Below are positions 32,964-43,557 of a stretch of DNA of 64,000 nt, piece by piece (position 1 is the stretch's first letter; the number at the start of each line of letters is the position of its first letter). The notes under the pieces were generated by a model that worked only from the letters and a program-made list of their open reading frames with translations, was not told the origin of the DNA and did not search any database. Source of the DNA: Holosporales bacterium (GTDB lineage: Bacteria; Pseudomonadota; Alphaproteobacteria; Holosporales; CAZGKG01). A program made the translations under genes and the position numbers. Where the stretch lies: assembly GCA_044361745.1 (NCBI GenBank), contig JBIKIF010000001.1, positions 16,104 to 80,103 on the forward strand, written 5' to 3'.

Positions 32964-33626
32964 CTAAGATTTTTGACTGAGAAGAAGTTGGATTTGTTCT
33001 CTGACCACCCGCTCAACAAGAGACGCAAGATGGGCATCCATCCAAGCTCTGAGGAGAGGTTTTGAAAGCTCTTGAATCATATCTTCCAAAGTTTGTGACT
33101 GATTCCCGCCCACCAAAATCTGAGGAGATTGTGCTAATTTTTGAAGAACTGCCGAGGAAACAGACTGGGTTTCTGAGGACATCAGCAACGGAGAAGAGGT
33201 CGCTGAAGCCCCATCTAGAGCCCGGCGCGTGACTGACGAAGGCGCTGCCGATGGAACCGTGGGTAAGGCGGCATGGTGATGGTTTCTGGCCGTCTGCTGA
33301 GGCTGACCCATCTGGGAAGTGTTTGCCCGGGCTAAACGTTGGTTATGGGCTTCCAGAGATGCTTGAATCCCTTGGGAAGGCCGGCTGTCTTCAGAGGGCT
33401 GGAGTGGGTTTTTGAGGTCCAAAATCCCTCCTTGATTTCTCCCAGGCGAACTTTCTTTGTTCAAAAAAGACGAAGGAACGCCAGGTTTTTGATCGTCCGA
33501 TATGATTTTACGTATAGACGTCAGGATTTCGTCCATAGACATCTCCTGATCAAACGTGTCTGTTGTTTCAGCATTTTTTGGTTGTGCGACCATTGTGCAA
33601 CCCTTTTTTTCGACCATAAATTTCAC
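32964..33626 (-). CDS. DUF2497 / PopZ-like protein
   Basis: The N-terminal MSMDEILTSIRKIISDD, a Pro/Ser/Gln-rich disordered middle, and the C-terminal TLEDMIQELSKPLLRAWMDAHLASLVERVVREQIQ match the PopZ/DUF2497 layout. The start is uncertain (M1, M12 or M29). Confidence 0.6.
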   Translation of the reverse strand: MKFMVEKKGCTMVAQPKNAETTDTFDQEMSMDEILTSIRKIISDDQKPGVPSSFLNKESSPGRNQGGILDLKNPLQPSEDSRPSQGIQASLEAHNQRLARANTSQMGQPQQTARNHHHAALPTVPSAAPSSVTRRALDGASATSSPLLMSSETQSVSSAVLQKLAQSPQILVGGNQSQTLEDMIQELSKPLLRAWMDAHLASLVERVVREQIQLLLSQKS

Positions 33627-35188
33627 TCGGCTCTCTCTTCCACCCCGATTGTGAACCAGGGATCGTAAGCTTCCGGGTTATATTGATGGACTTTAAGTCC
33701 TAAATTTTTCGTTAAAAATTGGCCCAAAAGTGTTTTTATTTGAACTTTAGCCATAATTAGATCTTTCTTGCTCTGAACCCGTTGGGTTTGGGATTCCACG
33801 AGAGAATACTGAGCGAGACGAACATCCGTTATGGATTTGCTTCCCAAGTTCCACTCCTCAAGAAGCCCTTGATACGCCTGCTCCCGCGCTTTAACTTCTC
33901 TGTCGAACTGGCGCGTTGCCTCAAATGTCGCTTGCATTTGCGCATAGGCTTGCAGCATGTTGGAGCGAATGGTTCTTTGGGCCATCTGTCTTTGATAGCT
34001 GATTTTCGTCAAGTTATTCTGTCCCGCACGCACCTGAGCCTGTTGTCGACCTGTGGGAATGGGAACAGTGAGGCTAAACATCACAGACAAATTTCTTACA
34101 TTCGCGGTGTCTTCCCCAAGCTTGTAACGATCGAGCCTACGGGTAGCACTGGCGTTCGCCTTTACACTGGGAAGCATTTGGTCAGCTGTGGTTGCGTAGA
34201 CATCCCTTTCCGCAGCGCGTTCCTGATCCAATGCGCCGAGAACTGATGGGCTCTCCCGCAGTCCCCGGGCAATCAGCTCCTCCGAAGATTCCACAATGTC
34301 GATCGGCAAATCTTCCGGCCACGTCAGCTCTTGGGAAGGCTCTTTGCCAATAATTCGCGCAAAGTCTCCACGGGCAGAGAGTAAATCTCCTTCTGCTTTT
34401 ACGCGGGCAGCCGTGGAAGCCGAGCGCTTCGCCTGCTGGCTTAACACCTCCCCTTGAGAGATGCTTCCCACATGGAATTGGGCTTCCACCTGCTCCAAAG
34501 TCATTTGGGAATTGGCTTCATCCTGCTTGCGAATCTTGAGGATTTCTTGCTTTAGCCAGACGTCTAAAAACGCATTAATGGCCTCTAAGAGAACTTTGTT
34601 TTCTGCAGCCACCAAAGACATTAAAGCGCTTTGTGTGTTGTAGTCAGCGCTCTTCAGGCGGGCAAGAGACGCGCCACTTGAAAACAAAGATTGCTCAAGA
34701 GACAGTCCCGCTTCTCGATAGCCATCAACCTTTGTCTCTGTTCTTTTGTTTTGAGAGGCCTGTTGAGACAGCGTGACGTTCAGCTGGGGAATCCACTCAG
34801 ACCACGCGATATTTTTCCCCTCTTGGATTCTCCGAAGATCCGCTTGCGCAATTTTTAAGTCTGGGTTTGAGGCATAGGCCTGGGACAGCGCTTCCTTCCA
34901 AGTTTTGATGCCACCAATCACAGGCTTCACCAATAAATCATCCGGCTGAGAAATGGGCGTGGTTGCCGCAAGAGGGGGGAGAGGTTTGCCTGCTTGAGAC
35001 GTTTTATTGACAGGACCCTTCTGAGGCTGAGTTCCCATCGACGATGTCAGTTCTTTCGATTTTTGAGCATCTGTTTGGGGCGCGCTCTCCTGATGCCCAG
35101 GCGCAAGATCAACTACTTCGTCTCCGTGAGAACAATCCACAAATGACAAAAAAAACCCTGCTACAAAAACCCCCATCCGGTATGTCAT
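33623..35188 (-). CDS. tolC: TolC-family outer-membrane efflux protein
   Basis: 521 aa with a signal peptide and two repeated coiled-coil/OEP halves (AQADLRRIQEG..., ...AQVRAGQNNL...). It overlaps the downstream DUF2497 gene by 4 nt. Confidence 0.8.
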   Translation of the reverse strand: MTYRMGVFVAGFFLSFVDCSHGDEVVDLAPGHQESAPQTDAQKSKELTSSMGTQPQKGPVNKTSQAGKPLPPLAATTPISQPDDLLVKPVIGGIKTWKEALSQAYASNPDLKIAQADLRRIQEGKNIAWSEWIPQLNVTLSQQASQNKRTETKVDGYREAGLSLEQSLFSSGASLARLKSADYNTQSALMSLVAAENKVLLEAINAFLDVWLKQEILKIRKQDEANSQMTLEQVEAQFHVGSISQGEVLSQQAKRSASTAARVKAEGDLLSARGDFARIIGKEPSQELTWPEDLPIDIVESSEELIARGLRESPSVLGALDQERAAERDVYATTADQMLPSVKANASATRRLDRYKLGEDTANVRNLSVMFSLTVPIPTGRQQAQVRAGQNNLTKISYQRQMAQRTIRSNMLQAYAQMQATFEATRQFDREVKAREQAYQGLLEEWNLGSKSITDVRLAQYSLVESQTQRVQSKKDLIMAKVQIKTLLGQFLTKNLGLKVHQYNPEAYDPWFTIGVEERAE

Positions 35189-35575
35189 CGTTTGTTCCTA
35201 GCTCTCTGAATGTCCGTTTCCCAAAATATGTCTGTTTTTATACGCGCTTCCCAGCTTTTTTCAAAGAGTGTTCCTTTGAGCCCCTGAAGAGGCCCGTTCA
35301 AGATATCTTCCTATATCTTCAAAAATTCTTTTTTTAATTAAATGGGGCGCTTTTGAGTTTTGGCAAAAATATTGATTGGTTTGCTTTTTGAATCCCTATG
35401 ACCTTGACCATTTGATCCGTGCTTTCTGTCCAAGCCAGCTAAAGCCTTCTGCTTTGCTTGCGGCGATGAGACACGAATTGGGGCGGCCGGTTCCTATCGC
35501 CCAAGCCTTACTCCTGACAGAAGAGACGGTCCGCAAGCATATCCAAATAAACGGCGTTGCCCCTCCCAAAAAACC

Positions 35576-36555
35576 TTAAGAACATTTTTCTTTCTCTCTG
35601 GAGAAGTAACGTTTGACAGAAAACATGACGCGACGCTCTTTGAGGTCTCTAAGCTTATGTGTATAGAGTGTTGGACCAGATCCAACGGTTTTTGATGAGG
35701 GATCTCTGAAACTTGTGTGTGTGAACTCGCAGTGAAATTTGGTATGGGGGAGGGATTTCAGTGAAAAACTAAGCCCAAACCCGCCCTTGACGCCCAGCAG
35801 ATTGTGATTTGCTTCGGTGGCGCTTTGGGGGTAAGGGGCGCCCGTATCTGAATCTGTGATCCAACTTGAGCTTTTCACCTGTTTCAGTGAGACGCCCGCA
35901 AGGAGAGAAATCCCAAAGGTTGGAGACAGGCGATATTCGCCCCGGACAACCAGGCCTGCTTGATTTTTCTCTTGAACACCTGTCGATCCCACAAGATTTT
36001 GCGCTGTCGTGGTCTGGATTGTCGTCGTATTCGGAATAGCCAAGGTTAATTGCTGCGGACCAGAGGATGTGGGAACAATTAGACCGGAACCTGTGCTGAC
36101 GGTCGTTGTAGTGTTTCCGTGGCTTACGGAGACAGGGGCGATCGAAGTGGTCGTGTAGGTTGAATTTTGAACATTTTGAACGCATTGATTATTTACAATT
36201 GGTCCGTTGACATCGACCTGATAGGGGGATGAAACCGTTTGAGCGACGTTTGTTGTCTGAAGGCCGCCGGCAGGCGTAATGGTTTCAGAGGTCGTTTTTT
36301 GAGGGGTGCTGCCAAGACCGACAGACACAAAAGGCTCGACTGAAACGTTGACGGACCCAACGTTCATTTCGTAGCCAAGCAAAAGAGACAATTGGGCCTG
36401 GGTCACTTGAGATTTTCCGCCAAAATTCACATCGTTGTTCTGAAAGACAGTTCCGTTGCTGGTGGCACTCTGTTGCGAATCAGACCAAGAAGACCCCAGA
36501 CTTACACCCGCATACGCACCTTTCGGGGATGAGGATGGATCGTCCATCCTTTCTT
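35576..36555 (-). pseudogene. 3' fragment (beta-barrel domain) of an outer-membrane protein gene interrupted by the IS element
   Basis: Track ORF 35576..36580 starts inside the IS inverted repeat, so MTRSYTR is IS-encoded. The native part, KERMDDPSSSPKGAYAGVSLGSSWSD..., lacks any signal peptide. It joins in frame to the 37418-37737 fragment when the IS plus one TA is removed. Confidence 0.65.
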
Positions 36556-36557
36556 TA

Positions 36558-37417
36558 GGCCTCGTGTAGGATCTGGTCAATTTTCCAGATAGGCTATTTG
36601 ATCCAGATGAGGGCTCCGACGATGTGAAGGAAGCTGAGGAAGGCTTGTGCAGATTTGTCGAACCTTGAGAAGACGCGCCGGAAGTGCTTCATTTTACCAA
36701 AGAAGCACTCGATGAGATGGCGTTCTCGGTACCAGTGTTTATCGTAATCCCTTGGATTTTTTCTGTTTTTACGAGGTGGAATCACAGGCGTTCCGTGCTT
36801 CTCTTGAATGTGCTGGATCAGGGCGTTGCTATTATACCCCTTGTCGGCAATGACCCAGGTGCCCCGATGGTCTCCCAAAAGGGCTTCAGCTTGGGTGATT
36901 TCATGCCTTTGACCACCGGTAAGCCTGAAGGCTAGAGGGTTTCCAAGGCCGTCCACAAGGGCATGAATTTTGGTGGTAAAGCCACCTTTGCTTCTGCCAA
37001 GGCCTTCATTTTCTTGATTTCCGTACCCTGAGGCACAGGCGTGGGCTCTGACAATCGTCGCGTCCATCATCAGTTCTTCGTGATCTGGGGCATCCTTGAG
37101 GTTTTCAAAGAGTTTTTCCCAGACGCCTTTTTGAGACCAGCTTTTAAAACGGGCGTGCACGGTCCGCCATTTTCCGTATACCCAAGGCAACAACCGCCAC
37201 TGGCAGCCACTGCGGCACACATAAAGAACAGCATCAACGAAGCGCCGGACACGGCGCTCATGCCGAAGGTGGATTCCCGGAATCGTCCTCAAAACACGAA
37301 AAAGTTTTTTCCAAACAGCATTTTTCACGTCGTATGGCATGGGGTAGGTTCTCCTCTTGTAACTCACGGAAAACCTACCGCTTTTTCGTCAATTTTTACA
37401 GTTTCCTACACGAAACC
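36558..37417 (-). mobile_element. Intact IS5-family insertion sequence (IS427-group-like), 860 bp, flanked by a TA target duplication
   Basis: The terminal inverted repeats are GGCCTCGTGTAGGA (36558-36571) and TCCTACACGAAACC (37404-37417), matching at 12/14. TA lies at 36556-57 and 37418-19. A single 257-aa DDE transposase ORF lies inside. Confidence 0.8.
36594..37367 (-). CDS. IS5-family (IS427-like) DDE transposase
   Basis: FVDAVLYVCRSGCQWRLLP...WRTVHARFKSW...DATIVRAH...GFTTKIHALVD...ADKGYNSNAL...YRERHLIECFFGKMKHFRRV matches the family. It is uninterrupted; the likely start is MPYDVKN (37340). Confidence 0.85.
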   Translation of the reverse strand: MSYKRRTYPMPYDVKNAVWKKLFRVLRTIPGIHLRHERRVRRFVDAVLYVCRSGCQWRLLPWVYGKWRTVHARFKSWSQKGVWEKLFENLKDAPDHEELMMDATIVRAHACASGYGNQENEGLGRSKGGFTTKIHALVDGLGNPLAFRLTGGQRHEITQAEALLGDHRGTWVIADKGYNSNALIQHIQEKHGTPVIPPRKNRKNPRDYDKHWYRERHLIECFFGKMKHFRRVFSRFDKSAQAFLSFLHIVGALIWIK

Positions 37418-37737
37418 TAGGTCCACCCGAATTCTTTGGGGTCTCCTCCGGTGTCGGCGGAACAACCGCGTTGTCTACACTTTCTTCAATCACGTCAAGA
37501 AGGCGGGTGGCCGTTTGTGCTTGGGGATTTATTTGCGAAACGCATTGCCCTGTATCAGAATTGCGCGTTTGATCTGATGGGCATTTGTTTTGACAAACCC
37601 CTTTAACCATTTCTGTGTTCGTGTCTGTGCAAACGGATTGATCTGTATTAGAATTGGGCGTTTGATCTCGTCGGTCTTCGCGTAGACACCCCCCCCAATA
37701 AACCGACTCCGAGTAAGATAAACAAAATGCGCCGCAT
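37418..37737 (-). pseudogene. 5' fragment of the IS-interrupted outer-membrane (lipo)protein gene, also out of frame at a G8 tract
   Basis: AAGGAG-N7-ATG lies at 37737, giving MRRILFILLGVGLLGG. With 8 G the frame stops at 37648. With 7 G it reads ...LLGGC (lipobox) LREDRRDQTPNSN...PEETPKNSGGP up to the IS junction (the frame of track ORF 37389..37844). Confidence 0.55.
37689..37696 (-). repeat. Homopolymeric G8 tract (C8 on the plus strand) at the signal-peptide/lipobox junction
   Basis: Counted directly: 37689-37696 are all C. Confidence 0.9.
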
Positions 37738-37876
37738 GGAAGGGCTCCTTTCGTGAAATGAGGTGCGGCTTTGAGCGCGTCTGCCTTCATCCAAAGACGG
37801 GTCTGCTTTTGCCGAATAAATATTTTTATGAGACTTTTTTTCAAAAGAAGAGCTTGAAAAATTGTTTTCTTCCATC

Positions 37877-37919
37877 AAAAAAACCTTTCAAAACAATCAA
37901 TTAAATTGTTTTGGAAAGG
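37877..37919 (-). terminator. Rho-independent terminator (minus strand)
   Basis: On the minus strand, CCTTTCCAAAACAAT-loop-ATTGTTTTGAAAGG (14-15 bp stem with one bulge) is followed directly by UUUUUUU. It lies about 275 nt downstream of the glmS stop. Confidence 0.6.
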
Positions 37920-38192
37920 TATGAAAAAAACCTATAAAAGTCAAATTTTAATCAAAATTGCATAAATTCCGACTTTAAAGGATGGCATTGACCCAACGGT
38001 CTTCCAATCAGTTTTCGATCTTTTCCTGCAGGGCATTTTCGATCCGATCCACAGCACTGGGAGGAGGGGACGCGACAACAGAGGGTGCCGCCTGTGGGGA
38101 TGGCTGCCGGTGTTGCTTGAGGGGCGGCAGGGGTTTGGGGAGCGGTTGGCGTAGGTGCCTTGTTGGAAGGGAGAGAGGCCTGAGTTTGCCCC

Positions 38193-40031
38193 CTATTCCA
38201 CGGTGACAGACTTCGCCAGATTGCGGGGCTGGTCTACGTCTCGGCCTAAAAGACAAGCGGTTTGATAGGCGAGCAGCTGAAGCGCCACCCCGTACACAAA
38301 AGGCGCCGTAACAGTGGATGTTTCTGGCAAAACCAAAAATGAGGCTTTCAGCTGGGGCATCCGGTCCCGCCCTTTGGCGTCTGTGAGAATCAACAAAGGG
38401 GCTTTGCGTGCCGCAACCTCCTGGATCGTCCCAATCATCTTATCAAATGTGTCTCCGAAGGGGGCCAGCACCACCACAGGAAGACTGGCGTCTAGGAGGG
38501 CAATAGGCCCGTGCTTCATTTCTCCCGCACCGTACCCTTCCGCGTGAATATAGGACAATTCCTTGAGTTTCAGGGCGCCTTCGGACGCTAGAGCTGCAAA
38601 AGCCCCCCGCCCCAAAAAAAGGGAACTCTTGGCATCCGCCAGATGGCGTGCTGCCAGTGTTTTGATCACAGGGTCTAAAGCCAGAACTTTCATCAGCACA
38701 GCAGGCAATCCTTGGGCTTCCCGAATCAATGTTTCAAAATGGGCGTCCGAGAGGGTGCCTCTCACCCGCCCCAAATCAAGGGCTAGGTTCAAAAGGGCGA
38801 AAAGCTGGGCGGTAAAAGCTTTGCTAGAGGCCACACCAATTTCAGGGCCCGCATGGGTTTCAATCACCACATCTGCCCGCCTTGCGAGAGAGCTGGCCGG
38901 GACATTCACCAGCGCAAGGGTGTGCTGCGCCAACGCTTGGGCTGTTTCAAAAGCGCCCAAAGTGTCCACGGTTTCTCCTGATTGGGAAACGAACACAACC
39001 CATCCGTCCTGAGGAAGAGGGGTATTTTGGTACCGCAACTCTGACGCCAATTCCCCAATGGTGCGCGTGCGGGTCCAGGCTTCAAACCAAGGACGGGCCA
39101 CCAAACCTGCATAGTAAGCGGTTCCGCAGGCGGTAATCGTGAGAGAGGAAAGTTTTTGAGCAGACTCCAGAAGTCCATGTCGCTCTAAGATTCCTGGGAA
39201 CGTTTGAGGGGCGTGCTCTAAAAGGGCAGCAAGCATCTGGGGTTGTTCAAAGATTTCCTTGTGCATAAAGTGGGGATGATTGCCCTTTTCAAGGCCTGTC
39301 GCGTCAATGGGATTGGGCAGACTGTCCCGCATGACCGGGGCGCCCTCAGCATCAAAAATTTGAATCCCCTCAGGGGACAGAAGGGCAAAATCCTTGTCTT
39401 CCAAGTACATGATGTGGCTGGAGAGTCCGGCGAGTGCAATGGCGTCTGAACCACAAAATGTCTCATGCTCCCCAAGAGCCACCGCCAGAGGGCTGTTCCC
39501 TTGACGATAAGCCACCAGGGTGTCTGGAAAGTCTTTCAACAGAATGGCGCAGGCAAAAGACCCTTCAAGACGACAGAACACAGACCTCAGAAGGCCAGGC
39601 AAATCCTCTTTGGATGGGGCGGATTCTAAGATTTTATCGACCAGGTGGACGATCACCTCTGTATCCGTTTCGCTGTCAAAGACAGCGCCTTGTTCCTTCA
39701 AAGCTTCCCGAAAAGGATGAAAATTTTCAATAATGCCGTTGTGCACCACAAAAATACGATGATTCCCCTGGGGGTGGGCATTGGATTCGCTAGGAACACC
39801 ATGGGTGGCCCAACGGGTATGGCCAATGCCCGCTGTCCCGTCGAGAGGCTGTGCGGCCAAGCAGGCTCGTAGAGCCTTAATTTTCCCGCAGGCCCGCCGC
39901 CGTTCAAAATGGGAGGCATTCATTGCGCAAAGGCCGGCGGAATCATATCCGCGGTATTCGAGACGCTGCAAGCCGTTGAGCAGACGATCGGTTACAGGCT
40001 GACGCCCCACAATCCCTATAATGCCACACAT
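38193..40031 (-). CDS. glmS: Glutamine--fructose-6-phosphate aminotransferase
   Basis: MCGIIGIVG is the N-terminal nucleophile. Two SIS domains are present and the C-terminus is ...NLAKSVTVE. 612 aa. Confidence 0.95.
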   Translation of the reverse strand: MCGIIGIVGRQPVTDRLLNGLQRLEYRGYDSAGLCAMNASHFERRRACGKIKALRACLAAQPLDGTAGIGHTRWATHGVPSESNAHPQGNHRIFVVHNGIIENFHPFREALKEQGAVFDSETDTEVIVHLVDKILESAPSKEDLPGLLRSVFCRLEGSFACAILLKDFPDTLVAYRQGNSPLAVALGEHETFCGSDAIALAGLSSHIMYLEDKDFALLSPEGIQIFDAEGAPVMRDSLPNPIDATGLEKGNHPHFMHKEIFEQPQMLAALLEHAPQTFPGILERHGLLESAQKLSSLTITACGTAYYAGLVARPWFEAWTRTRTIGELASELRYQNTPLPQDGWVVFVSQSGETVDTLGAFETAQALAQHTLALVNVPASSLARRADVVIETHAGPEIGVASSKAFTAQLFALLNLALDLGRVRGTLSDAHFETLIREAQGLPAVLMKVLALDPVIKTLAARHLADAKSSLFLGRGAFAALASEGALKLKELSYIHAEGYGAGEMKHGPIALLDASLPVVVLAPFGDTFDKMIGTIQEVAARKAPLLILTDAKGRDRMPQLKASFLVLPETSTVTAPFVYGVALQLLAYQTACLLGRDVDQPRNLAKSVTVE

Positions 40032-42376: not shown

Positions 42377-42421
42377 GGTCTCGAGTAGGTTTTGTGTCGT
42401 CATCTTAAGGGGGATCGGTCG

Positions 42422-43429
42422 ATGTCTCGTGGGCTTACACCCCTGTCACTCAGTGGTCTCAAACCTCTGTGCAACCCTTCCCTTTGGCCTTTGCTTGAGC
42501 GTTTTGAGCGGTGGCTTTTATCGGAGCGCATTCTCTCTCTCCAAACTTACAGAACGTACATGGGGGATTTGAAGCAAGCGTTTCAATTTTTTCGGGATGC
42601 CCACGGAACTCTTCCAGACGAACCTTTTTTGACCAGCCTGACCGCCAGTGATTTCAGGTCTCTTCTCGCGTCCCGTGTGAGTCAAAGTGTGAGCAAAAGG
42701 ACCAATGCGCGGATGCTTTCTGCCTTGCGGACTTTTTTTCGCTTTATGGAAATGGAGACCGGGGTCTCTCAAGAAGGGATTCACAGACTGAGAAGCCCTC
42801 GGCTTCCCAAACGTCTGCCGCGCCCTCTTACTCCGTCTCAAGCCCTTGAGCTGACAGAGCCTTTGACCGTTGCTGGTGAGGAGAGACAAGACTCTTGGCA
42901 GACGCTTCGAAACCGCGCTTTGTTTGCTCTTTTGTACGGATGCGGTCTACGAATTTCAGAAGCGCTTCGCTTGAATATGAGGGATTTTCCATGGGAATGG
43001 CACCCAGGGTGCGCCCTGAGGATTCTGGGCAAGGGACAAAAAGAGCGTTTTTCCCCTCTTTTAGAGAGAGTTCATGCTTTGATCTTGCAGTCTCTTGAGG
43101 CAACGCCCTTTGTCAAATCTCCAGACTCTCCACTTTTTTTCAGCACACGGGGGAAACGTTTTTGCGGCGCGCAAGCGGCTTCTGCTCTTGCGGCTTTGAG
43201 ACTCCCCCTTGGTTTGTCTCCGAAAGCAACGCCCCATAGTTTACGCCATAGCTTTGCGTCCCATCTTTTAGAGGCGGGGGTTGACCTGCGGCATGTCCAA
43301 GAGCTTCTAGGGCACAGCTCTCTCGCCTCAACTCAGGCCTATATTCAAGTCTCGGAAGACGGGATTCTAGAAGCTTACGCAAAAGCCCACCCGCTGATGA
43401 AGGGAAAAGGACGCAATGGCCCTATCTGA
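42422..43429 (+). CDS. xerC: Tyrosine recombinase, XerC-like
   Basis: It has an N-terminal SAM-like domain (RTYMGDLKQAFQFF), the catalytic RISEALRL, HSLRHSFASHLLEAGVDLRHVQELLGHSSLASTQAYIQV. XerC versus XerD is judged from the HSFA/VQELLGH pattern only. Confidence 0.7.
   Translation: MSRGLTPLSLSGLKPLCNPSLWPLLERFERWLLSERILSLQTYRTYMGDLKQAFQFFRDAHGTLPDEPFLTSLTASDFRSLLASRVSQSVSKRTNARMLSALRTFFRFMEMETGVSQEGIHRLRSPRLPKRLPRPLTPSQALELTEPLTVAGEERQDSWQTLRNRALFALLYGCGLRISEALRLNMRDFPWEWHPGCALRILGKGQKERFSPLLERVHALILQSLEATPFVKSPDSPLFFSTRGKRFCGAQAASALAALRLPLGLSPKATPHSLRHSFASHLLEAGVDLRHVQELLGHSSLASTQAYIQVSEDGILEAYAKAHPLMKGKGRNGPI

Positions 43430-43478: not shown

Positions 43479-43557
<79 letters not shown>

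Follow-up and report, generated by a model that had tools for sequence, protein, structure and literature searches.

An IS5-family insertion in a putative outer-membrane beta-barrel gene of the variable glmS–TolC interval in a Holosporales bacterium

The interval between glmS (38193–40031) and a TolC-family gene (33623–35188) in a stretch of 64,000 nt from a Holosporales bacterium contig (JBIKIF010000001.1; the whole stretch is called the window below) contains two minus-strand reading frames separated by an insertion sequence (IS). This arrangement raises the question whether the two frames are the halves of a single gene split by transposition and, if so, what kind of gene it was and whether the IS is the only lesion in it. 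The original prediction was that of an IS lying in one continuous frame, whose excision would give back an intact lipoprotein gene with a beta-barrel domain.

Anatomy and classification of the insertion sequence

The element occupies positions 36558–37417 (860 bp, minus strand) and ends in terminal inverted repeats, GGCCTCGTGTAGGA on the transposase-distal side (36558–36571, plus strand) and GGTTTCGTGTAGGA on the transposase-proximal side (reverse complement of 37404–37417, minus strand), which are identical at 12 of 14 positions, while the TA at 36556–36557 and the TA at 37418–37419 form the first and the second copy of a 2-bp target duplication. Re-reading of the sequence confirmed these predicted features throughout, and the boundaries and the duplication were further upheld by five other full copies found in metagenomes (L006–L010; all 860 bp, 97–98% identity), each of which had the structure TA|GGCCTCGTGTAGGA...TCCTACACGAGGCC|TA. 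In total, TA was present on both sides in 6/6 copies compared, in a YTAR context. The inverted repeats of the other five copies were identical at 14/14 positions and had GGCC at both tips, while a GGTT tip occurred in the window copy alone, in its transposase-proximal repeat; the description of the repeats as well matched thus holds only in part. A 4-bp CCTA target duplication, fitting the window copy, was ruled out by the presence of TCTA, TTTA and the like upstream of the other copies, and a composite transposon was ruled out by the absence of a second IS end within the window. In the Logan data for SRR27421689, an independent assembly, both IS junctions were recovered.

The transposase is encoded at 36594–37367 (minus strand) by a single ORF of 257 aa, if started from GTG, or, with the ATG at 37340 that NCBI/JGI annotate, of 248 aa. 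It matched NCBIfam NF033580 (transpos_IS5_3) over the full length with 274.6 bits (cutoff 110), Pfam PF01609 (DDE_Tnp_1) with 70.4 (cutoff 23) and PF13340 (DUF4096) with 66.6 (cutoff 34.3), in agreement with the prediction of an uninterrupted transposase, and the ORF appears intact. The 248-aa form was recorded solely on the source contig (224,868 bp), and exact look-up of the 257-aa form found it not on record.

In the ISfinder scheme, elements of the IS427 group of the IS5 family are about 800–1000 bp long, and their transposases are commonly, although not obligatorily, encoded by two ORFs with a programmed frameshift. The window element shows an IS5-type DDE transposase, inverted repeats bounding a length within this range, and a target duplication within the short (2–4 bp) range of the IS5 family, and its sequence features make it IS427-group-like. 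With the IS427 group it has in common the combination of DUF4096 and DDE_Tnp_1 domains, short terminal inverted repeats beginning with GG and the 2-bp TA duplication. Among individual members, ISCaa13 has the same length of 860 bp and a 253-aa transposase (PMC3196728), while the best named plasmid matches of the transposase were ISLpl3-family elements at 45% aa identity, ISLpl3 being listed by ISfinder as IS5/IS427 (PMC9670130). In contrast to this likeness, the amino acid identity to named elements was just 45–54%, the tip of one window repeat is mutated (GGTT for GGCC), and the transposase is one unbroken ORF rather than the two-ORF programmed-frameshift layout, whereas ISLpl3 matched in two pieces, suggesting a frameshift in the ISLpl3 matches.

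The junction, the barrel part and the relatives

Removal of the IS together with one TA produced ...GGT GGA CCT AAA GAA AGG ATG..., a single frame reading ...NSGGPKERMDDPSS..., and the repaired, IS-free junction is predicted as GGGTGGACC-TA-AAGAAAGG; the predicted in-frame joining of the flanking ORFs was therefore borne out by translation. The TTG at 36580, which starts the apparent 334-aa ORF (MTRSYTR), lies inside the IS, confirming that this start is IS-derived.

The 3' part of the disrupted gene (35576–36555, minus strand) consists of approximately 326 codons plus a stop, including a Thr/Ser/Asn-rich insert, and retains no signal peptide of its own, the only export signal lying upstream of the IS, in another frame. 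The match to Pfam PF13505 (OMP_b-brl) reached 21.7 bits, below the gathering threshold of 28.7 (E = 2.5e-4). The AF2 model (3-sequence alignment, moderate confidence) had a mean pLDDT of 62, with values of 83–93 in the strand blocks, and contained 8 long strands. Each of the top 50 Foldseek matches was an outer-membrane barrel, among them OmpA, NspA and Pla/OmpT, with probability 1.0 to OmpA, NspA, Ail and OmpX and a target-normalised TM of up to 0.65. The predicted beta-barrel was thereby recovered: this part models as a small (~8-stranded) outer-membrane barrel with a long Thr-rich loop. It resembles the OmpA-TM, OmpX, NspA and Opa barrels in the predicted strands, in the weak PF13505 match and in the Sec signal found in the relative, and it resembles surface antigens in its fast evolution. 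It differs from the OMP_b-brl barrels in scoring under the Pfam gathering threshold and from the OmpA-type barrels in a disordered Thr/Ser/Asn-rich insert of about 95 residues (model residues 88–182 of the 323-aa P0001), in 8 residues beyond the C-terminal ...KRYF, and in the size of its family, with only 3 members in 1.84 billion representatives.

The only close relative of the barrel gene (P0002; 83% aa identity, same synteny) carries an ordinary Sec signal peptide of its own and lacks a Cys-rich N-domain, and the more distant homologue P0138 follows the same plan of Sec signal plus barrel, the Sec signal of these relatives ending in AQG. The dN/dS of the barrel against the close relative was 1.11, compared to 0.10–0.45 in six genes of the neighbourhood with similar dS. 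Thirteen contigs from closely related strains have 516 nt of unrelated sequence in place of the whole cassette (35545–38177, minus strand) that separates glmS from the TolC-family gene, and the barrel gene is absent at the site in 13/13 of them.

Across the insertion point, the relative's uninterrupted ...AAACCTAAAAAAAGGATGG aligned with the repaired ...GGACCTAAAGAAAGGATGG, and its empty-site analogue AAACC-TA-AAAAAAGG matched the repaired GGACC-TA-AAGAAAGG. Homology to this relative ended 3–5 nt upstream of the IS, which counts against a simple insertion. Further upstream, a 443-nt variable segment of the window, holding the 5' part of the gene, takes the place of 65 nt in the relative, and a lenient global alignment of the two segments gave no convincing internal homology; synteny resumed about 440 nt upstream with TTGAAAAAAAGTCTC, left over from the ancestral start region, followed by the same upstream gene and glmS. 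Were the IS and the replacement of the N-terminus independent events, a homology break so close to the IS would be an unexpected coincidence (~1% by position).

A different origin of the junction would be an IS-mediated rearrangement, either by adjacent deletion, by recombination of two IS copies or by co-mobilisation of flanking DNA, that joined a fragment of an unrelated small lipoprotein gene to a 5'-truncated barrel gene, the frame being kept by chance (1 in 3). The homology break next to the IS is what such an event would leave, and the TA flanks are uninformative here, since every copy of the element sits between TAs and the "duplication" alone cannot prove that the flanks were once contiguous. 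Moreover, L006 and L009 have one flank in common and differ in the other, and the IS is present in several copies in the sample, as seen from contigs ending within it, with a truncated second copy also present. However, the ACC preceding the TA is the same as in the relative's empty site, with a chance of 1/64 if the flanks were unrelated, and neither a second IS end nor a solo inverted repeat was found near the window IS. Since synteny resumes upstream, simple inter-IS recombination or inversion cannot account for the locus. We consider that the flanks were never contiguous only as a highly improbable scenario.

The 5' part, the G8 tract and the age of the lesions

The 5' part (37420–37737, minus strand) starts from the ATG at 37737, with a Shine-Dalgarno sequence AAGGAG (37745–37750, minus strand) located 7 nt upstream, and its translation gives a signal peptide, a lipobox Cys, Cys-rich repeats and a Pro-rich linker. 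The Cys-rich region includes an internal direct repeat, copy 1 at 37631–37668 and copy 2 at 37538–37575 (both minus strand), which are 87% identical and spaced by 93 nt. A homopolymer of eight G (G8; 37689–37696, minus strand, C8 on the plus strand) shifts the signal peptide into another frame. The span from 37737 to 35576 minus 862 nt equals 1300 nt, which is no multiple of 3, and the frame of the ATG (MRRILFILLGVGLLGG) differs from that of the rest, terminating after 29 codons (TAA at 37650–37648). With one G fewer, and with the IS also removed, the sequence reads LLGG|CLRED... in a frame of 432 aa; likewise, MRRILFILLGVGLLGG|C matches the PROSITE-like lipobox pattern only with one G removed, while in the sequence as it stands this Cys falls in another frame. 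Because this +1 frameshift separates the signal peptide from the lipobox Cys, excising the IS precisely would not bring back the 432-aa lipoprotein. Hence, the original prediction stands in its IS anatomy, in-phase junction, placement of the IS in a continuous frame and barrel domain, but not in a lipoprotein regained by IS removal alone.

A sequencing error in G8 was rejected, since an independent k-mer assembly (Logan contig L019) also had G8, albeit both assemblies may share reads; G8 was accordingly treated as real in the dominant population, and is either a further lesion or the OFF state of a phase-variable gene.

A search of 5.8 billion proteins with the Cys-rich N-domain alone gave no homologue; no gene is annotated for it in the source record, and exact look-up of the four possible N-terminal ORF products found none on record. 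A metagenome DNA scan with the signal peptide and its G tract, set to accept tracts 5–12 long, gave 0 matches, not even the source contig, in a collection that does not include the source sample. The search for an uninterrupted long allele in relatives, proposed originally, was negative both in 5.8 billion proteins and in an exhaustive HMMER scan, the nearest form being the short Sec type of P0002. Among GTDB representative genomes, the barrel alignment yielded no allele or relative, and a scan with the neighbouring TolC-family gene, which ran on N-terminal signal-peptide patterns, yielded none either (a weak negative), while a protein-guided metagenome scan returned only the known short-form contig. 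Taken together, the plan of P0002 and P0138, the 13 barrel-less contigs and the orphan N-domain point to the lipoprotein plus barrel architecture as a strain-specific, derived state with a putative function.

The G8 run belongs to the mutable simple repeats that set the frame from within the 5' coding region, as is typical of contingency loci, and the pilC genes of Neisseria undergo poly-G phase variation in the signal-peptide region. By analogy, slipped-strand mispairing could switch the gene between an ON state with G7, in which the lipoprotein is exported, and an OFF state with G8, the IS being a second and irreversible OFF. The run is placed exactly between the h-region and the lipobox Cys, the loss of one base combined with IS removal opens the 432-aa ORF, and the gene is fast-evolving and polymorphic in presence. 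In contrast to pilC-type loci, however, such tracts are not enriched, with 2 G/C runs of at least 8 in the 64 kb against about 1.5 expected, and G8 was the same in both assemblies, with no G8-like tract in the relative. A contingency switch was therefore judged distinctly unlikely.

The IS might also have entered a gene that was already dead, with export ended by the signal-peptide replacement and/or by G8; the N-domain would then be no real functional domain and the in-frame junction would merely reflect a recently decayed reading frame. An N-segment without homologues and uncalled in the source, the G8 frameshift in two assemblies, the ancestral-type architecture of Sec signal plus barrel, and the dispensability of the barrel gene in sister strains all agree with this sequence of events. 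Against it, the 5' part combines a strong Shine-Dalgarno sequence with an ATG and, if read with G7, a textbook n-region, h-region and lipobox, and its frame is free of stops over 141 codons up to the IS in DNA of 50% GC. Outgroup polarisation (7 vs 13 changes) gave no excess on the window branch, so that the barrel part is without extra decay, which fits a recent inactivation. Overall, prior death of the gene appears unlikely, although it deserves consideration.

The proposed history of the locus and its implications

The locus is probably best explained by a simple IS insertion, of fairly recent date, into an accessory surface-protein allele that is itself derived. In favour of this, the barrel ORF is still open, as in just 5.7% of unconstrained simulations; against it stand the failure to find an IS-free long allele in the searches and the orphan, unannotated N-domain. 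According to this scheme, the 860-bp IS5-family element would have inserted at a YTAR-type TA, duplicating the TA, within the codons CCT-AAA (Pro106-Lys107) of an outer-membrane protein gene specific to the strain, itself part of a swappable cassette immediately downstream of glmS. The 3' three-quarters of this gene would encode the outer-membrane beta-barrel of ~8 strands and its long, Thr-rich surface loop, while the 5' quarter is probably derived, its ancestral Sec signal peptide having been replaced by approximately 440 nt of orphan sequence that brought a new Shine-Dalgarno sequence and ATG, a lipoprotein-type signal peptide, the Cys-rich repeat and the Pro-rich linker. The present allele would then be doubly inactivated, by the IS that splits the export signal from the barrel and by G8 that misframes the signal peptide relative to the lipobox Cys. 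The long allele may once have been a functional lipoprotein-barrel fusion, and the insertion is presumably recent. As in other surface-protein genes inactivated by IS, the element lies inside an outer-membrane protein gene, and the insertion is in itself an ordinary kind of gene inactivation.

A bolder and quite improbable extension would regard the glmS-proximal cassette as a contingency locus of a near-orphan barrel family occurring in absent, Sec and lipoprotein states, switched by poly-G and locked OFF by the IS. The lipoprotein N-terminal module would in that case have arisen de novo or via illegitimate recombination, and the IS site near the module boundary would reflect a part played by the IS in creating or delivering this module.

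As regards annotation, the 323/334-aa "hypothetical protein" and the ORF upstream of it, which carries no annotation, are both pieces of a single inactivated surface-protein gene and should not be taken for functional proteins. The locus also documents, in an uncultured lineage, an IS5/IS427-like element that is unnamed, looks active and has TA (YTAR) as its defined target, and it marks the stretch from glmS to the TolC-family gene as a strain-variable surface-protein cassette. Loss or variation of the surface protein may be tolerated or even favoured in these bacteria, for example through escape from phages or from the host. If the long allele is functional in other strains, it would provide a small case of a Sec to lipoprotein signal-peptide swap in an outer-membrane barrel.

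Insertion sequence and its ends

The insertion sequence (860 bp, 36558-37417, minus strand) is bounded by terminal repeats, GGCCTCGTGTAGGA (36558-36571) and GGTTTCGTGTAGGA (reverse complement of 37404-37417), which in the window copy are identical at 12 of 14 positions, with TA directly outside each end. Its sole ORF (36594-37367) encodes a transposase of 257 aa from a GTG or 248 aa from an ATG at 37340, which matched NCBIfam transpos_IS5_3 over its full length (274.6 bits; cutoff 110 bits) and exceeded the cutoffs of both Pfam DUF4096 and DDE_Tnp_1. The nearest named transposases, among annotated plasmids, belonged to ISLpl3-family IS5 elements (45% aa). ISLpl3 is placed in the IS427 group of the IS5 family in an ISfinder table (PMC9670130), and ISCaa13 of the IS427 group has the same length of 860 bp (PMC3196728); the label "IS427-like" in the original prediction is therefore reasonable, and by its sequence the element would belong to a known group, as yet without a name of its own.

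The claim of an in-frame insertion hinges on the IS boundaries and might have failed at this point. The transposase cluster at ≥90% identity included 72 members, mostly on metagenome contigs of ~1 kb. Complete copies on five contigs (L006-L010), each 860 bp long and 97.3-98.0% identical to the window copy, were all organized as TA-GGCCTCGTGTAGGA...TCCTACACGAGGCC-TA with differing flanks in YTAR context, and a sixth other copy (L004), 5'-truncated and 95% identical, had the same end. Because of this agreement, the proposed ends and 2-bp TA duplication are solid. A 4-bp CCTA duplication, compatible with the window copy alone, was ruled out by the other copies. Among the copies compared, GGTT replaced GGCC at the transposase-proximal tip only in the window copy, and this variant recurred in an independent assembly.

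The truncated copy (L004 1-631), which starts at IS position 261 and adjoins dapF, recurs on a 144-175 kb contig (JGI/NCBI sample 3300059473). It represents an older remnant; its sample is that of the window, and the two may share a genome. No further copies were found elsewhere within the 64-kb window. Independent Logan contigs (SRR27421689) ran into the element from either side and broke off after 31 and 44 nt, a behavior expected for a multi-copy repeat in k-mer assembly. In contig L007 (1-140) the IS 3' end, TA and the IS 5' start were directly joined, which could represent tandem copies, a circle junction or a repeat assembly artefact.

Reading frame and barrel domain of the disrupted gene

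Removal of 36558-37419 produced ...GGT GGA CCT AAA GAA AGG ATG GAC... in a single frame (...PKNSGGPKERMDDPSS...), confirming the predicted in-phase junction after deletion of the IS and one TA; the start of the 334-aa ORF was also correctly attributed to the IS, since its TTG at 36580 falls inside the element. The anticipated 432-aa lipoprotein, on the other hand, did not result from IS removal. The ATG at 37737, preceded by a good Shine-Dalgarno (AAGGAG) with a 7-nt spacer, encodes MRRILFILLGVGLLGG in a frame differing from the remainder of the gene, and as sequenced this frame continues as ...VSTRRPTRSNAQF to a stop at 37650-37648. The frame shifts at a G8 run (C8 on the plus strand, 37689-37696), and precise IS excision with nothing else changed leaves 1300 nt, not a multiple of three. 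G7 instead of G8 is needed to obtain MRRILFILLGVGLLGG/CLREDRR..., a canonical predicted lipoprotein signal, and a repaired gene of 432 aa. The G8 is unlikely to be an assembly slip because the independent Logan contig L019, with 100% identity to the window along 858 nt, shows the same tract, although the underlying reads may be the same. A phase-variable G-tract, compatible with insertion into a single gene, seems distinctly improbable; G/C runs of at least 8 were not enriched in the window (2 observed against ~1.5 expected).

The 3' part of the gene (35576-36555) gave a weak, sub-threshold match to Pfam OMP_b-brl. Its AlphaFold2 model, built from an alignment of 3 sequences, contained eight long antiparallel strands (mean pLDDT 62; 83-93 in the strand blocks); residues 88-182 of P0001, the window's 323-aa fragment on record, form a disordered insert rich in Thr, Ser and Asn. 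Foldseek matches in the PDB were exclusively outer-membrane barrels, including the OmpA transmembrane domain and NspA at a target-normalised TM of 0.65, as well as OmpX, Ail and Pla/OmpT. This evidence agrees with the originally proposed beta-barrel-like domain and leads to the conclusion that this part forms a small outer-membrane beta-barrel whose surface loop is large. When 5.8 billion proteins were searched through a word index, only P0001 itself and P0002 (83% identity) were recovered; HMMER, run exhaustively over 1.84 billion representatives, contributed P0138 alone as a further homologue (31% identity, E = 3e-22). The family appears almost orphan by sequence, and the target, though rare, has the ordinary structure of a barrel protein.

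The barrel part compared with metagenome contig L001 had dN 0.097, dS 0.088 and dN/dS 1.11, against dN/dS 0.10-0.45 in six neighbouring genes at comparable dS. The ORF was open in both lineages, with a single indel between the alleles (three codons in the protein alignment, net 9 nt length difference); when the 83 observed substitutions were placed randomly, the frame stayed open in just 5.7% of simulations. Polarization with P0138 assigned 7 changes to the window branch and 13 to the relative's branch, therefore no extra decay is evident in the window copy. The G8 frameshift speaks for, and this lack of decay against, death of the gene before the IS arrived, a reading considered unlikely. The pattern, albeit from small numbers, is consistent with diversifying or relaxed selection on a surface protein that was recently inactivated in the window. 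The alleles (window 35576-36555, L001 339-1310) differed by 32 transitions and 51 transversions, a transversion richness unusual for neutral divergence.

Relatives, N-terminal segment and flank contiguity

The P0002 contigs shared with the window the downstream TolC-family gene, DUF2497, Mdh, FtsW, SSB and PepP and the small Pro-rich ORF upstream. P0002 begins with a Sec signal peptide of its own (MKKVSYFAILVFFVECISLAQG/KSKPKKRMGDPS...) and lacks the Cys-rich N-domain; since the distant P0138 has the same plan (...REAQG/N...), the short Sec-exported form is the ancestral architecture. The uninterrupted long allele expected in relatives was not recovered from any of the collections searched (the 5.8 billion proteins, the 1.84 billion HMMER-scanned representatives and the metagenome scans), both relatives being short and Sec-type. 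The relative and the repaired window were 91% identical in DNA on either side of a divergent segment, where 65 nt in the relative correspond to 443 nt in the window. Homology restarts at ACC-TA-AA, where just 3 nt precede the insertion TA, and part of the ancestral start region is retained at 37844 (TTGAAAAAAAGTCTC against GTGAAAAAAGTCTC). The N-segment contains an internal 38-nt repeat at 93-nt spacing and is without annotation in the source record; the N-domain search found no homologue anywhere. The Pro-rich ORF (38008-38256, minus strand) overlaps the glmS 3' end and stops 11 codons before its counterpart in the relative because CGA has changed to TGA; L001, L002 and L005, which are independent metagenome contigs, all start at one and the same base inside it.

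Contiguity of the flanks is indicated by the agreement of ACC with the relative's empty site (chance 1/64), the in-phase junction (chance 1/3) and the synteny restarting upstream. The TA "duplication" alone proves nothing, because every copy of this IS stands between TAs. Moreover, L006 and L009 had an identical 3' IS flank (TAGGGTGGTTGAGACGAAGG) and different 5' flanks, resulting from rearrangement by the IS or else from chimeric assembly of the metagenome, so that TA flanks are no proof of contiguity. It is an unexplained coincidence that the new N-terminal module has its boundary within 3-5 nt of the IS. IS-mediated juxtaposition of unrelated fragments is judged very unlikely. The probable explanation is that the IS simply inserted into an uninterrupted reading frame, that of a derived and accessory allele, which also carries the G8 frameshift.

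Variable cassette beside glmS

The barrel gene was missing altogether from 13 contigs of closely related strains, whose TolC-family protein fell in the same ≥90% cluster and whose flanking DNA was 94-99% identical to the window. Homology ended at 38178, 15-16 nt past the glmS stop, and restarted at 35544. In these contigs the two points are separated by 516 unrelated nt (L013 4129-4644), a replacement that holds an opposite-strand ORF of 100 aa. The entire interval from glmS to the TolC-family gene (35545-38177) is a swappable cassette. The divergence point lies near the position after glmS used by Tn7-like elements, but Tn7 genes are absent. Elsewhere in the window, a tyrosine-recombinase (phage-integrase family) ORF (42392-43429, plus strand) adjoins a tRNA gene (43484-43557, minus strand) and may mark the edge of an integrated element, and a cluster of 47-197-nt direct repeats (57238-59103; 77-98% identical) inside overlapping long ORFs of both strands looks like a repetitive protein gene.

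Disruption of outer-membrane protein genes by IS elements is commonplace. What is mildly unusual in this case is the predicted Sec-to-lipoprotein swap of the N-terminus, the presence/absence cassette beside glmS and the unexplained closeness of the module boundary to the point of IS insertion.
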